Below, in pieces: positions 3,195-47,449 of a stretch of 64,000 nt of DNA. Below the pieces are notes generated by a model. It saw only the letters and a list, made by a program, of their open reading frames with translations. It made no database searches and was not told the origin of the DNA. The first letter of the stretch is position 1, and every line of letters begins with the position of its first letter. This DNA comes from Alphaproteobacteria bacterium (GTDB lineage Bacteria; Pseudomonadota; Alphaproteobacteria; JABAAW01): assembly GCA_014238535.1 (NCBI GenBank), contig JABAAW010000001.1, positions 911 to 64,910 on the forward strand, written 5' to 3'. Position numbers and translations under genes: made by a program.

Positions 3195-3698
3195 TTGTTG
3201 AAGAGCATGCGTGGATATTTCGGGGTTGGCATTGAGAACTTGTCGAAGGCGCACAATGCAGGAGCACTATATCGCACGGCGCATGCGTTCGGAGCGGACT
3301 TCGTTTTTGCGTTTGGCGAGCGTCTGCCTACGCGCCTATTGCAGCAGGTAGATACATCGAAGGTTGGTCGTCATGTGCCTTTTTACTGCTATAGCGGGCT
3401 TGAGGAAATGGTTTTACCGAATGGCTGCGCGTTGGTAGGCGTTGAGTTATGCGCGCATGCACGCGAGCTTCCTGAGTTTGAACATCCCTCTCGTGCGGTA
3501 TATGTCTTTGGACCAGAGCGCGGCGATTTGTCATCGGATGTTTTAGACCATTGCCATAGCGTTATTAAAATTCCTACTCGTTTTTGTTTGAATGTAGGCA
3601 TTGCTTGCGCTGTCGTCATGTATGATAGAGGATTGAGCTTGGGAAGTTGGGGGGCTCGTAAGGGTTTTGGAGCGAGCAACAAAGGATATAAAACATAG
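3195..3698 (+). CDS. SpoU/TrmH-family RNA 2'-O-methyltransferase (small TrmL-like)
   Basis: 167 aa; the GIENLSKAHNAGALYRTAHAFGADFV pattern fits the SPOUT methyltransferase fold. Confidence 0.65.
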   Translation: MLKSMRGYFGVGIENLSKAHNAGALYRTAHAFGADFVFAFGERLPTRLLQQVDTSKVGRHVPFYCYSGLEEMVLPNGCALVGVELCAHARELPEFEHPSRAVYVFGPERGDLSSDVLDHCHSVIKIPTRFCLNVGIACAVVMYDRGLSLGSWGARKGFGASNKGYKT

Positions 3699-40150: not shown

Positions 40151-40298
40151 CTTTCCTACCTTTTCGTATTTATATTGAGGATTTTTGACAATAGTAGTTG
40201 TGAAGTCAATAGTGCAAGTGGCGGTTGTTACCTACTGCTGTTATGCGTGGCTTGCTTGTACTTTGGCTATTACGCTTTGTTTATTATACATTGAGTAT

Positions 40299-41270
40299 AT
40301 GGAAGAAGAAGTTATGGAGGCAGGTAATGAATTTGACTACTCTGAAGACAAGAATTTAGTTGATTGGTTTTTGGACGCTCGTTTTGCTGAGCGCAACATA
40401 GCGCAGAACACGATGTCTGCTTACCGCTCGGACTTGCGTGCTCTCGCCGATTTTTTGCACGCGCGCGGTAAATCGCTGAAGAGTGCTGAGCGCGATGATC
40501 TACAAGATTGGTATGGCTACCTGCACGATGTGCGCGAGCTAAAAGCAACGAGTTTGGCGCGTAACCTTGCTACGCTACGGCAGTTTTATCGCTTTGTGGT
40601 AGCTGAGCGGTTATGCCCGCAAGACCCGACTTTACACATGGAGTCGCCTCGATTTTCGCGTCTTCTCCCGCGAGTGCCTAGCGTACAGATGATGCGCTTG
40701 TTAATGGAAGGTATAGAGCATGATGGGAGATCGACGGCTACTAAAGCGAATTCGTTGCGCCTGCGGTTATTGGTTTCGCTATGCTACGGCTCTGGCCTGC
40801 GCGTCTCGGAGCTTGTTAGCCTCGAGCGAGGAGCACTTTCTAGGGAACCTCCTATTGCGAAGATAGTCGGCAAGGGAGACAAGATTCGTTTTGTTCCGTT
40901 GCTACCTAGCACATTTAGCGCATACGATTCTTACTTGAATGTGCGAGAAAAGTTCATTCCGAATTACCTTAAAGGAGTTTCACCGTATATTTTTCCCTCG
41001 ACTTCGCTCAAAGGTCACCTTACGCGTCAGCGTTTCGGTCAGCTGTTGAAGGATGCGGCAACGCGAGTCGGGCTTGATGCGAGCAAACTATCGCCGCACA
41101 AATTACGCCATGCCTTTGCGACACACTTGCTTGCGGGTGGTGCGGATTTACGTGCGATTCAAACGATGCTTGGGCATTCGGATATTTCTACGACCCAGAT
41201 TTACACGCACCTAGTAGACGAGCAGTTACAGAAGTTGGTGCATACGAAGCACCCGCTTGCAGATAAGTAG
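40299..41270 (+). CDS. xerD: Tyrosine recombinase XerD (chromosome dimer resolution)
   Basis: C-terminal HKLRHAFATHLLAGGADLRAIQTMLGHSDISTTQIYTH is near-identical in pattern to canonical XerD. The start is moved to MEEEVME; the track ORF starts at 40185 with an implausible hydrophobic leader. Confidence 0.85.
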   Translation: MEEEVMEAGNEFDYSEDKNLVDWFLDARFAERNIAQNTMSAYRSDLRALADFLHARGKSLKSAERDDLQDWYGYLHDVRELKATSLARNLATLRQFYRFVVAERLCPQDPTLHMESPRFSRLLPRVPSVQMMRLLMEGIEHDGRSTATKANSLRLRLLVSLCYGSGLRVSELVSLERGALSREPPIAKIVGKGDKIRFVPLLPSTFSAYDSYLNVREKFIPNYLKGVSPYIFPSTSLKGHLTRQRFGQLLKDAATRVGLDASKLSPHKLRHAFATHLLAGGADLRAIQTMLGHSDISTTQIYTHLVDEQLQKLVHTKHPLADK

Positions 41271-41291: not shown

Positions 41292-41780
41292 TTATGGTTT
41301 ATCTGCTGTCCTGTTTCTCAAGCAATCTTCTAGCGAACAGATAATCTTACCTGTCATTCTTCGCGAAATAGTGGAGTCAGATTGTGGTTCGCCTTTCATA
41401 GAATTTTTAAAAAAGTTTATTGTTTTTTGCACAATAGGTTGTGGCATTTCGCAAATCTCTTCTGCAGAAGAAACGTTATTTTTGTATAGGGTTTTTAGTT
41501 GAGAAAGATTGAGATAGCTTATGTGCTTTAACTTGTGGTGGCTTGAGGCATTATGGGGAACATAAGGATTTATCTCACCAGGAAGGATTTTTAACTGAGC
41601 TTCTGTAATATGCCATGGGTTACTATTGAAAAAGAAAATAGATTGTGGAACCGATAAAACCAAGAAACAAAATTTATATTTCTCATAAGTTCCACCTCCC
41701 TGTTCTTTAGGTTTTCTTAAATCGGTGTACTTTATTTTGCAAAAATACCCAACTTTTAGATTAAGTGAATCATCTTGCAT
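41292..41780 (-). CDS. Hypothetical 162-aa protein; candidate toxin partner of the upstream Panacea-domain gene (no family recognised with confidence; faint MazF/PemK-like residue pattern)
   Basis: ORF lies 23 bp downstream of the Panacea gene on the same strand, inside a ~33% GC islet. The N-terminal half is K-rich; the hydrophobic core is FCFLVLSVPQSIFFF...WHITEAQ. Confidence 0.45.
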   Translation of the reverse strand: MQDDSLNLKVGYFCKIKYTDLRKPKEQGGGTYEKYKFCFLVLSVPQSIFFFNSNPWHITEAQLKILPGEINPYVPHNASSHHKLKHISYLNLSQLKTLYKNNVSSAEEICEMPQPIVQKTINFFKNSMKGEPQSDSTISRRMTGKIICSLEDCLRNRTADKP

Positions 41781-41803: not shown

Positions 41804-42370
41804 TCAGCAAACAAAAGCGAGAAACTTGGCGTTTTCTCTAATTTCTTCAAGAATTTCCTGCCTGTGAGGATTGTCATCCTTAACCATATCTTCGTAATTC
41901 ATTTTGTCATCTATATTATTTTTCCAAGCTTTATCATGCGAAATTCTAGATAATTCCGCAAAGCCTTTGCCTTTACAAAAATTTAAAGATTCTTTTAAAA
42001 AGTGGATATCGCTTCCCGACAAATAATCCAACTCTGGCTCTCGAAGAGCTATTATCTTTTTCCTTCTAGCATTAGGGGTAGAGATAGGATCAACTCTGAT
42101 GGACCGTTCTAAATCCTCATAAATATCAGGCTTGATAAAATTTGTTTCTTTCTTTATTAAATTGTAGACACACGAAGGAACAGGCCCATATTCCATAGCC
42201 CGATATTCGTCCCCTATTATAGGACGCCCATGTCTGTTCAGGTGCCATTTGTCAGCAAAATAGCAAATTTTACTTACGCTAAACTGATCAGCGTTTTTCT
42301 TCCTAGTAGCAATCCAAACAAGCACCTCAAGAGCTTTCTTTTGGTCAAAATGTTCGAATGCTTTAACCAT
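41804..42370 (-). CDS. Panacea domain (DUF4065; SocA/GepA-like) antitoxin-type protein
   Basis: N-terminal block SKICYFADKWHLNRHGRPIIGDEYRAMEYGPVPSCVYNLIKK matches the hallmark Panacea core (hydrophobic-K-L-x-K-L-L-Y-F-A-x-x-W, then G-x-P-hydrophobic, then W/A-x-x-G-P-V). 188 aa; first gene of a two-gene AT-rich operon. Confidence 0.6.
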   Translation of the reverse strand: MVKAFEHFDQKKALEVLVWIATRKKNADQFSVSKICYFADKWHLNRHGRPIIGDEYRAMEYGPVPSCVYNLIKKETNFIKPDIYEDLERSIRVDPISTPNARRKKIIALREPELDYLSGSDIHFLKESLNFCKGKGFAELSRISHDKAWKNNIDDKMNYEDMVKDDNPHRQEILEEIRENAKFLAFVC

Positions 42371-45016: not shown

Positions 45017-45907
45017 TTACCTAGTTTCAGGTTCAGGGCTATTATCGTCTTGCTTGCGCTTATCTGCGTCGTGATTCTTCGCTTTAAATGTTAGCACCCT
45101 TGCTCCTTCTTCTGCGCCTATTCTCTCGTTTACCCCTGTATTTATAACGGTTTCTATCCTTGCGTTTGCAAATGTTTCTCTAGTAATTTTATCATTTGGT
45201 TTTTTACTGCTTTCAACAGATTTTAGCTTATTGGTGCGTTTCGGTTTGTGGGAAACCATGCTATATGAGATGCCTTTTATAAAAGGTGAGGTGCTATCCG
45301 AACTTTTGGAATCCCCCTTATTGCTCTCTTTATAGCCATCTTTATCGTCTGTTTTAAGCCACTCGCTGTTGCTAGTGCTACCACCTTTAGTAGCGTTTCC
45401 TTGCGGCTCTTCACGCCTTGTAGCATTACTCGGCGTAGGTTTTAGCAATTGTGTAGGCTCGTTTATTTCGTCTGTTTTGTTTGTAGCGCGTGGGTAGATC
45501 CTTCCAGGCTTATGATTGAGTCCAATTTCCTGTTCGTGCTCTGATCTATTGCCCTCGAAGTTTAGCACTAGCTCTGCTTCAGGGTCTGAGAACATTTCGA
45601 CTGCGCTGAACGGGATGTATAGGTTTTCGAACTTACCGCCGAAGCTCAGTGAGACGGAAAACCCCTTATCGCCTACGCGTAGGTTATGGAACTGATATTG
45701 CAAGACGATAGTCATGCTTTCGGGGTATTTCTGGCGTAGGTATAGTGGTAGCACTACTCGTTGAGCCATGGTCTTGAAGGTTATGTAGAAGTGATGATCG
45801 AGCGGCATCCCAAATTCTTGCGCTCGTTGTAGGGTTTTGCGCACGACCCCTCGTAGTGCCTCGTGTATCATTTCGGTGTATCCGAATGCGTCGTGCGTCG
45901 ATTTCAT
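45017..45907 (-). CDS. sspB: ClpXP specificity-enhancing adaptor SspB (alphaproteobacterial type) with long disordered K/S/T/E-rich C-terminal tail
   Basis: The N-terminal ~120 aa align by pattern to the SspB fold (IHEALRGVVRKTL..., VSLSFGGKFENLYIPFSAVEMFSD versus E. coli FNARFGGIPRQVSVPLAAVLAIY). A low-complexity tail follows. Confidence 0.75.
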   Translation of the reverse strand: MKSTHDAFGYTEMIHEALRGVVRKTLQRAQEFGMPLDHHFYITFKTMAQRVVLPLYLRQKYPESMTIVLQYQFHNLRVGDKGFSVSLSFGGKFENLYIPFSAVEMFSDPEAELVLNFEGNRSEHEQEIGLNHKPGRIYPRATNKTDEINEPTQLLKPTPSNATRREEPQGNATKGGSTSNSEWLKTDDKDGYKESNKGDSKSSDSTSPFIKGISYSMVSHKPKRTNKLKSVESSKKPNDKITRETFANARIETVINTGVNERIGAEEGARVLTFKAKNHDADKRKQDDNSPEPETR

Positions 45908-45934
45908 TGTGTGGCGGCTATATGCTAAGGTTGT

Positions 45935-46330
45935 TGGGGCTCAAGGGATGGTGCCGGTTTCTGTTGCCAGGCACCGGCGAGCCCCGCCTAGACCTGTGTA
46001 GGGGTCTAGGGCTTGCGAATTCGCGCCCCGTTAATTTTAAAACCAACAGGGTGCTAGTTCAGATGTTGCTTTTGCTGCGGTTAAGCGGCTTGGGCAACTA
46101 CACGCGCATTATCGTTTGCACGTTATGATTTAGCCCGATAACAGCGGGACTCCACCGAATGCCGAGCGCGCCTTTTATTACGCACGTCGAATCTATTTCG
46201 CCCCCATCGTTTTCTCTGCACGCTACCTGCTATCAAAGAAGGCACTTTCAGAGAAAATGGTGGAGGCGCCGGGTACCGCCCCCGGGTCCGCAACGTCTAT
46301 TATGACGCATCGTTTAGCACTATAGCCAAA
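45935..46330 (-). ncRNA. ssrA: Two-piece (circularly permuted) tmRNA gene ssrA: acceptor piece ~46330-46258, intervening hairpin 46257-46206, coding piece 46205 to ~45935 (3' boundary approximate)
   Basis: All on the minus strand. A T-arm ccggg-ggcggta-cccgg is followed by the 3' acceptor strand cgcctcc, discriminator a and CCA (ending at plus 46258). The coding piece begins gggggcgaaauagauucgacg (the GAUUCGACG tmRNA 5' motif) and pairs as G1-G2-G3:U... with the acceptor strand. The tag ORF gca aac gat aat gcg cgt gta gtt gcc caa gcc gct taa (46119..46081) gives ANDNARVVAQAA-stop. The 52-nt intervening segment forms a 9-bp hairpin (uuuucucug/cagagaaaa), as expected for precursor processing. 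Confidence 0.75.
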
Positions 46331-46340
46331 AGGCAGTTCA

Positions 46341-46369
46341 CTCTAGCACATTTAGCCCCCTCTAACAAC
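46341..46369 (-). promoter_or_regulatory. Putative sigma70-type promoter of ssrA (minus-strand TTGTTA - 17 bp - TAGAGT)
   Basis: Read on the minus strand about 15-40 nt upstream of the predicted acceptor-piece 5' region. This is sequence inspection only. Confidence 0.3.
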
Positions 46370-46477
46370 CGAGCATAGGTAGTAATTTTCTCGCTCATAA
46401 AAAAGGTTGTTTTTTTTATTAAAATATCTATTTTTATAAATTGACTATGAAAGCAACGCAAATTTGGAGGAATTATA

Positions 46478-47449
46478 ATGGCAGACTACAAAGGTACAAC
46501 GGGTAACGATAGACTTGTCGGTACCCATAATAACGATAGCATGTTCGGATACGCAGGCAGAGACAATATACGTGGCCGTAGAGGTGATGATCTGCTTAAT
46601 GGTGGTGAGGGAGACGATACTCTGTATGGAGATCAGGGGCAAGATGTAATCGTAGGCTGGCATGGCAACGATAGGTTATTCGGTGGTGATGGAGGTGATA
46701 GAATTTTCGGCAATGATGGCAACGATACAATGGCAGGCTCGAATGGTAAAGATACCATGTTGGGCGGTAAGGGTGATGACACTATAGAAGGAGGTGCGGA
46801 AGCAGACCATCTAGACGGTGGTCAGGGAAACGATATTCTATCGTACATAAAATCAACCATAGGGGTAGAAGTTGATTTGTCTAATGTCGATAGCGACGGT
46901 TTCGTCTTCACATCTGGAGGGCATGCTAGGGGAGATAGGGCGAGAAACTTCGAAAAAGTACAAGGTTCTAAATTTGATGACAAAATAGCAGGCGATGATG
47001 GTGATAATTCCATATCGGGCTACAAAGGCAACGATATCCTCCATGGTGGTGGTGGAAAAGATAATGTCAGTGGCGGTCCTGGTAACGACAGATTATTGGG
47101 TAGTAAAGGCTACGATAAATTAGAAGGTGGAGATGGTGATGATATCTACGAGTTACCTATTGCTACTTTTGACGGAGCTCTCGTAAGTGATATTAATGGC
47201 AGCAACGAGATATACTTAATATTTGACGATGTTGCTCCTTTTGATAAGGATAGTATTGCCTTTAATAGAAAAGGCGCGGACTTGGTAATTGCTGTTACGG
47301 CAAGGAGAAATGATGGAGGTGGTGATATCTTCAAGGAAGTTACTATATTTAGATATTACGACTTTCTAGAATCTGTTGATTTTTCTATCTACTACAATTC
47401 GCCACACGATGATAGGTTTTTTGAGTATAGCGGCGATTTACCCTCGTAA
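46478..47449 (+). CDS. RTX (hemolysin-type calcium-binding GGxGxD nonapeptide repeat) protein, 323 aa
   Basis: More than 12 tandem nonapeptide repeats (GGEGDDTLYGD, GGDGGDRIFGN, GGKGDDTIEG, GGGGKDNVSG, GGDGDDIYE ...). Preceded by an AT-rich promoter region with AGGA RBS. Gene GC (~43%) is below the flanking ~50%. Confidence 0.75.
   Translation: MADYKGTTGNDRLVGTHNNDSMFGYAGRDNIRGRRGDDLLNGGEGDDTLYGDQGQDVIVGWHGNDRLFGGDGGDRIFGNDGNDTMAGSNGKDTMLGGKGDDTIEGGAEADHLDGGQGNDILSYIKSTIGVEVDLSNVDSDGFVFTSGGHARGDRARNFEKVQGSKFDDKIAGDDGDNSISGYKGNDILHGGGGKDNVSGGPGNDRLLGSKGYDKLEGGDGDDIYELPIATFDGALVSDINGSNEIYLIFDDVAPFDKDSIAFNRKGADLVIAVTARRNDGGGDIFKEVTIFRYYDFLESVDFSIYYNSPHDDRFFEYSGDLPS

Follow-up and report, generated by a model that had tools for sequence, protein, structure and literature searches.

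The question raised by positions 45908-46477 of the window (the whole stretch of 64 kb of DNA analysed here) is what an apparently empty interval of the minus strand encodes. That no open reading frame (ORF) explains this interval, as had been claimed, holds in substance: only two ORFs of at least 60 aa touch it, one of 90 aa with a GTG start codon (45856-46128, plus strand), antisense to the RNA described below, and one of 72 aa (46445-46663). The interval almost certainly holds an ssrA gene, from an uncultured member of the Alphaproteobacteria, that is circularly permuted so as to give a two-piece tmRNA, the RNA which rescues stalled ribosomes and marks their unfinished proteins for destruction. 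Its membership of the family rests on sequence, structure, covariation of helices and conservation of the tag peptide. The gene is a routine member, already known in kind, and its form is standard in Alphaproteobacteria.

The covariance-model check proposed in the preliminary description was run with Rfam release 15 and was positive. The alpha_tmRNA model (RF01849) matches 46372-45950 on the minus strand over its full length (model positions 1-355) with 175.5 bits (E 6.4e-49), which is 3.5 times its gathering score of 50, and the tmRNA_permuted model (RF04321; gathering score 47) matches 46321-46081 on the same strand, also at full length, with 126.4 bits (E 2.6e-24). The order of the elements is the permuted one, with ACCA (46261-46258) followed by G1 (46205) and the tag (46119-46081), all on the minus strand, and together with the two scores it bears out the earlier reading of a permuted, two-piece tmRNA gene. 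No match to the one-piece tmRNA (RF00023) and no second ssrA were found by Rfam scan anywhere in the 64-kb window, in which the only other match to an RNA family is a tRNA-Pro. Four close relatives have a like tmRNA architecture (L003, L005, L008 and L009), all of them uncultured alphaproteobacterial metagenome-assembled genomes (MAGs) or metagenome contigs: L003 comes from a 1.73-Mb contig, L008 from the MAG bin19p, L009 from a 1.9-Mb MAG chromosome, and L005 is a metagenome scaffold whose sample yielded a sponge MAG as well. Rfam scores at the equivalent site in relatives are 184.9 bits (L003), 177.4 bits (L005) and 275.2 bits (L006), and the window gene scores about 100 bits less than is typical of tmRNAs in the class, L006 for example, owing to its insertions and divergent 3' domain.

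The acceptor piece (46258-46334, minus strand, about 77 nt) was delimited by the alignments to RF01849 and RF04321, the pair map and the covariation in 67 sequences. It consists, in order, of a small 5' hairpin, cut down to 3 bp compared with the Rfam models, the P2 5' strands (46321-46289), the T-arm (46285-46269), the 3' acceptor strand and ACCA. The T-arm has 5 bp (46285-46281 with 46273-46269) and the loop GGCGGUA, the 3' acceptor strand reads CGCCUCC (46268-46262), and ACCA is encoded in the genome; the 26-nt string of T-arm and acceptor strand is present in one copy in the window against zero expected. The acceptor stem of 7 bp is formed by 46205-46199 with 46262-46268, and within it G3 (46203) pairs with U (46264), so that the predicted G3:U pair, the alanine identity pair, is confirmed. 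Between the two pieces lies an intervening segment of 52 nt (46206-46257, minus strand), identified by its fold and by the retention of its hairpin in relatives, where the sequence differs and the length is 25-52 nt. Its 9-bp stem (UUUUCUCUG/CAGAGAAAA) has a dG of -17 kcal/mol compared with -10.1 +/- 2.5 for shuffled sequences (z -2.8), and the hairpin juxtaposes the 3' end after ACCA with the 5' end before G1. T-arm, acceptor strand with ACCA, 52-nt hairpin spacer, 5' strand GGGGGCG and the motif GAUUCGACG were thus every one located at the positions given in the preliminary description.

Several further features of this part of the gene were noted. The acceptor 3' end is encoded as ACCC, not ACCA, in L003 (about 3572-3575) and L005 (about 1144-1147), so the terminal A would need to be added post-transcriptionally there, and the terminal A is likewise not encoded in L018, L047, L050, L073 and L083. 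The intervening segment of L033 measures 174 nt compared with 10-80 nt elsewhere. The T-arm/T-loop of the window gene (within 46262-46283, minus strand) contains the same string, GGGGGCG, as the 5' acceptor strand. While the RNA is being made, this copy can hence base-pair with the 3' acceptor strand, and the terminator-like hairpin so formed is followed by ACCAUUUUCU; the U-run after this hairpin is not conserved among the other loci. The sole "terminator" returned by a consensus scan is the T-arm/acceptor region itself and was set aside as an artefact.

The coding piece (45950-46205, minus strand) has at least 256 nt, as delimited by the Rfam alignment to model position 355 and the pair map. 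It opens with the 5' acceptor strand GGGGGCG (46205-46199) and GAUUCGACG (46193-46185), both found by direct reading and Rfam mapping, and continues with the P2 3' strands (46186-46158, minus strand, from the pair map), the putative pseudoknot-1 region (46157-46120, minus strand, from the Rfam alignment), the tag and a conserved 3' hairpin GCCGGU.../...ACCGGC (45978-45953, minus strand). The P2 helix joins 46321-46289 with 46186-46158 by 18 pairs, all standard or G-U, and when the Rfam structure is mapped on to the window all 31 modelled pairs form, each of them standard or G-U (as listed, 18 in P2, 5 in the T-arm, 7 in the acceptor stem and 3 in the 5' hairpin). The RF04321 model places a single short stem in the pseudoknot region (about 46155-46140), where a CCCG/CGGG pairing is possible by eye, and members of the clade show no variation in this stretch before the resume codon.

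Covariation was assessed in relatives gathered through the protein encoded downstream, with the tRNA-like domain and P2 aligned for 67 distinct alphaproteobacterial loci and the 30 pairs of the window's own structure counted on this alignment. Paired cells make up 93.2 % compared with 82.8 % in shuffles and 35-52 % with slid partners, and this percentage, unlike the counts of two-sided changes, is inflated by the structure having come from one of the aligned sequences. Both sides change in 16 of the 30 pairs, and in 14 of the 18 pairs of P2, and the covariation score of 0.334 compares with 0.145 for shuffles (0 of 500 reach 0.334) and at most 0.106 for slid partners. A G:U pair stands at acceptor position 3 in all 67 loci. 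Compensatory changes are found inside the clade as well, from C-G to U-A in P2 and from U-A to C-G in the 3'-terminal hairpin.

A probable promoter for ssrA lies at 46340-46368 (minus strand), located from the aligned columns in relatives, with a -35 element TTGTTA (46368-46363), a 17-nt spacer and a TGn-extended -10 element TAGAGT (46345-46340; TGC-TAGAGT). The relatives L003, L005 and L009 hold TTGACA, 17 nt and TACGAT in the matching alignment columns; the hexamers of the window are weaker than theirs, and a consensus promoter scan detected no promoter at ssrA. This -35/-10 pair would put the start of the transcript at about 46334, and the RF01849 match accordingly begins with some 35 positions that precede the RNA. 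The 3' end is less certain and falls between 45950, where the Rfam match and the conserved hairpin end, and 45936. A possible but uncertain 3' extension (45936-45949, minus strand) is suggested by GAGCCCC (45942-45936), which can pair with GGGGCUC (45985-45979) and does so in the minimum-energy fold; this helix is not conserved in L003, L005, L008 and L009. These boundaries predict one mature piece of about 77 nt and another of about 256-270 nt, which agrees with the sizes estimated in the preliminary description, and the limits first proposed for the gene (45935-46330) come close to the revised ones.

The low Rfam score, the weaker promoter hexamers and an ARAGORN score under the default threshold would also suit a decaying or silent ssrA pseudogene in a genome that encodes its working tmRNA elsewhere, and the view taken here is limited to 64 kb of that genome. 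Such a pseudogene would not be expected to keep all its modelled pairs intact and a tag frame that differs from those of relatives only by synonymous changes, and the gene stands in the ancestral ssrA-sspB-fumarase context that is common across the class. Relatives of equal architecture, moreover, score similarly. A pseudogene is accordingly considered very unlikely.

The tag reading frame (46119-46081, minus strand) was identified by direct reading, by both Rfam models and by comparison with relatives. It runs GCA AAC GAT AAT GCG CGT GTA GTT GCC CAA GCC GCT TAA, from the resume codon GCA (46119-46117) to the stop codon TAA (46083-46081), and encodes ANDNARVVAQAA, so the tag frame and UAA stop noted earlier are present, and both Rfam models align them to the resume site. 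The same peptide is encoded in L005, L008 and L009, where all differences are synonymous and in third positions; between the window and L009 there are 6 such differences in 36 nt and no non-synonymous ones, which points to selection on the peptide. The tag of L003, ANDNARVAAQAA, has a single V-to-A change.

The tag had been called unusual, and this stands for the exact string, which was seen only in the window's clade (L001, L005, L008 and L009). It does not stand for the parts, since the ARV core and the VAQAA end each occur in tags from other loci and the middle of alphaproteobacterial tags is hypervariable. All 70 tags of other alphaproteobacterial tmRNAs start with ANDN and nearly all end in two alanines, the third-last residue is L, V, A or I in most of the 70, and the residues between ANDN and the last 3-4 positions vary freely. 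The ARV core is held in common with the Bosea tag (L045), ANDNNARVAVAA, and the ANDN start and ...VAQAA end with the ANDNYAPVAQAA-type tags, ending in ...PVAQAA, of three loci, L018 (Beijerinckiaceae), L020 (Xanthobacteraceae) and L083. Within Hyphomicrobiales the ...VAQAA end is met repeatedly. Among the tags compared, ANDNARVVAQAA would thus count as only mildly unusual. Internally duplicated tags were also met in this set, namely ANDNVSTVAANDNVFVEAGEKIAA (L021), ANDNFVVANDNNQAVAIAA (L028, labelled Micavibrio) and ANDNQVVANDNFAVREAIAA (L067).

ARAGORN, the second program proposed for checking the gene, did not support it in the same way. With version 1.2.41 at its default threshold no tmRNA was called on the whole window or on a sub-window, including runs with -m, -l and -c, and at the lowered threshold of -ps a permuted tmRNA was reported at 46352-45946 with a wrong tag, the frame AAKATSELAPCWF starting at about 46078. 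If this frame were the tag, the tmRNA would be real and its peptide would differ from the one given above, and ARAGORN does likewise place the tags of L003, L005 and L009 downstream of the ANDN tag, in frames that end in VRAA (ADNKRVVVRAA, ADGKSIVVRAA and AESNGGGVRAA). Both Rfam models, however, put GCAAACGAUAA at the resume site of the family, where 70 of 70 other alphaproteobacterial tags start with ANDN. The AAKATSELAPCWF stretch is not conserved in relatives, whose downstream frames gather non-synonymous changes and are not conserved as a peptide in L003, L005 and L009, and it has no alanine-rich C-terminus. It was rejected as the tag on these grounds and is regarded as extremely unlikely; the synonymous-only change in relatives decides for ANDNARVVAQAA. 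A post-tag insertion is present at about 3760-3800 in L003, 1330-1370 in L005 and 2790-2830 in L009, and not in the window or L008; it holds the hairpin AGCUGC CUA GCAGCU and a second tag-like frame that ends in VRAA and a stop codon, the one that ARAGORN takes for the tag in these three relatives.

Over the gathered tmRNA loci ARAGORN found 63 of 73 and missed the window, L008 and several Caulobacterales. A miss at default settings would explain why the gene may lack an annotation. Public hypothetical ORFs lie over the tmRNA gene at 2780-2986 in L001 (an identical metagenome contig), 3486-3800 in L003 and 1080-1373 in L005; the hypothetical ORFs in this position, including 45856-46128 (plus strand) of the window, encode 68-104 aa and have no Pfam match. 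Hypothetical ORFs over ssrA are probably spurious proteins that now stand in protein databases.

The gene next to ssrA, at 45017-45907 on the minus strand and 42 nt downstream of it, matches PF04386 with 125.5 bits, and its product matches the Caulobacter SspB structures 2QAS/2QAZ (E 4e-26, residues 5-119). It is sspB, the gene for the ClpXP adaptor that is the functional partner of the tag, and lies outside the RNA gene. In E. coli, SspB recognises the residues at the start of the ssrA tag and uses the tip of its disordered tail to hold the substrate at ClpX (PMC9963277). Synteny was surveyed in 80 alphaproteobacterial genome loci collected by means of an SspB alignment, 78 of which had enough upstream sequence. 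A tmRNA lies directly upstream of sspB on the same strand in 62 of the 78 (61 without L053, whose match is a weak and partial nhmmer match not confirmed by Rfam) and within 3 kb upstream in 6 further loci; in 10 of the 78 no tmRNA is present upstream, as confirmed by Rfam. The loci with the ssrA-sspB order carry labels such as Magnetospirillum, Inquilinus, Nisaea, Bosea, Xanthobacter, Brevundimonas, Phenylobacterium and Micavibrio, among others. A class I fumarase gene often follows sspB, and in the close relatives, as in one distant alphaproteobacterial MAG, ssrA is followed by sspB and then by this fumarase gene. No statement of ssrA-sspB adjacency was found in full-text searches of a literature that did not include the primary SspB-alpha paper, and the adjacency may well be known to others already.

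The SspB of the clade (window, P0001 and P0003-P0005) has 231-296 aa compared with the usual 160 or so and carries a long tail of low complexity. In other alphaproteobacterial SspBs the ClpX-binding motif, VVSLDxFRKK, forms the C-terminus of the protein, whereas in the clade it is shortened to VLTF(K/R)xK and is no longer C-terminal: the window protein reads ...RVLTFKAK and then has 20 more residues, and its clade relatives read ...KVLTFRPK followed by 16. The DNA between the two genes differs as well. L003 (3890-4000) and L005 (1460-1563) have a GC-rich hairpin and a T7 run, after which TGnTAGAAT stands at a distance of 9 nt from the sspB ATG. This arrangement resembles a terminator and, beyond it, an extended -10 element that would serve a near-leaderless mRNA. 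In the window (45907-45950) about 70 nt are lost compared with these relatives, and with them the terminator hairpin and T7 run, whereas TATAGC is kept 9 nt before the ATG; no Shine-Dalgarno sequence was found before the window sspB. With sspB starting 42 nt after the tmRNA and the relatives' terminator gone, partial read-through from the ssrA promoter would be possible. That the tag, its adaptor SspB and their expression, read-through into sspB included, were remodelled together in this sponge-associated lineage is a speculative idea that we think rather improbable. If it were true, sspB would be made partly by read-through from ssrA and freed by tmRNA processing, and a long-tailed SspB with a displaced and shortened ClpX-binding motif would go with the ...VAQAA tag.

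The wider surroundings bear on whether the gene belongs to the chromosome at all. A tmRNA copy borne on a phage or genomic island, in place of the chromosomal housekeeping gene, has some appeal because islands often integrate at tmRNA genes and tmRNAs are known from some phages (PMC11915505), and because a tyrosine recombinase gene (40185-41270) and a SocA/Panacea-domain antitoxin-like gene (41804-42370, minus strand; PF13274, 74.9 bits) lie about 5 kb and 3.5 kb away. The recombinase, however, carries the domain pair of the XerC/D type, an att-like duplication of any tmRNA fragment is absent from the window, and the flanks consist of housekeeping genes (sspB, class I fumarase, an RNase D-like exonuclease, glutathione synthetase and Pth) that are syntenic in relatives, including the 1.73-Mb contig. 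A copy borne on an island or phage is therefore held to be most improbable. The Panacea-domain gene is syntenic in L002 and L003, and an ORF of 162 aa without a Pfam match, 23 nt downstream of it (41292-41780, minus strand), could be its toxin partner. On the other side, and divergent from ssrA, a gene with a strong Shine-Dalgarno sequence (46478-47449, plus strand) encodes a 323-aa protein with RTX calcium-binding repeats (PF00353, 7 stretches); the ORFs at this position in L003 and L005, of 201-217 aa, are unrelated to it and match no Pfam family.

The window has a G+C content of about 48 %. Its exact SspB protein was found in just two assemblies, one of a metagenome and one from Logan, and a 76 % identical relative (P0001) is in GCA_014238935.1. 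This assembly is described as an alphaproteobacterial MAG obtained from Vazella pourtalesii, a glass sponge of the deep sea, and is placed in the same order as the o_JABSOH01 symbiont (GTDB order JABSOH01; PMC10947273).

The function expected of the gene follows that of its family. A single precursor would be transcribed from about 46334, and tRNA-processing enzymes would cut it after ACCA and, with RNase P, before G1, so that the 52-nt spacer would be excised. The acceptor piece (about 77 nt) and the coding piece (about 256-270 nt) would stay joined through the acceptor stem of 7 bp and through P2, a long helix, and the G3:U pair would direct charging with alanine. With SmpB, the tmRNA would enter stalled ribosomes, and translation would resume at the GCA at 46119 and append ANDNARVVAQAA to the nascent chain. 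The tagged protein would be degraded by ClpXP, probably aided by SspB, which would bind the tag in its N-terminal part. All these steps, from the processing of the precursor and its charging to the tagging and breakdown of proteins, are extrapolated here from the family. No smpB was found in the 64-kb window by tblastn with an approximate E. coli SmpB sequence as query, which is a weak test.

The result matters chiefly for annotation, in that the interval is not empty and an Infernal/Rfam pass detects an ssrA that default ARAGORN misses. It also supplies the predicted degradation tag, ANDNARVVAQAA, of a sponge-associated lineage of uncultured Alphaproteobacteria, and raises no fresh question on trans-translation. 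The blind spot of ARAGORN, the widespread pairing of ssrA with sspB and the altered tail of SspB are modest leads and not discoveries.

Among known systems the nearest comparison is with the two-piece tmRNA of Caulobacter crescentus, which was reportedly described by Keiler, Shapiro and Williams in 2000 in PNAS 97:7778. The window gene shares with it the permuted order of acceptor piece, intervening segment and coding piece, a tRNA-like domain with a GGCGGUA-type T-loop and the G3:U pair, and a tag that starts with (A)ANDN and ends in two alanines; the sampled Caulobacterales loci L059, L061, L066, L080 and L081 also have sspB downstream of ssrA. The window gene differs from that of Caulobacter in its longer spacer, in the insertions in its 3' domain and in the body of its tag, which is ARVVAQ in the window and FAEEFAV in Caulobacter, whose whole tag is AANDNFAEEFAVAA (PMC9393093). 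It also carries GAUUCGACG where the majority has GGAUCGACG. The one-piece tmRNA of the E. coli type (RF00023) has like modules, a tRNA-Ala-like domain and a tag frame, and the same function, whereas the window gene is circularly permuted and its mature RNA would be in two pieces. In this it joins a large company, as the tmRNA database of 2025 holds 11,946 unique permuted tmRNAs (PMC11915505).
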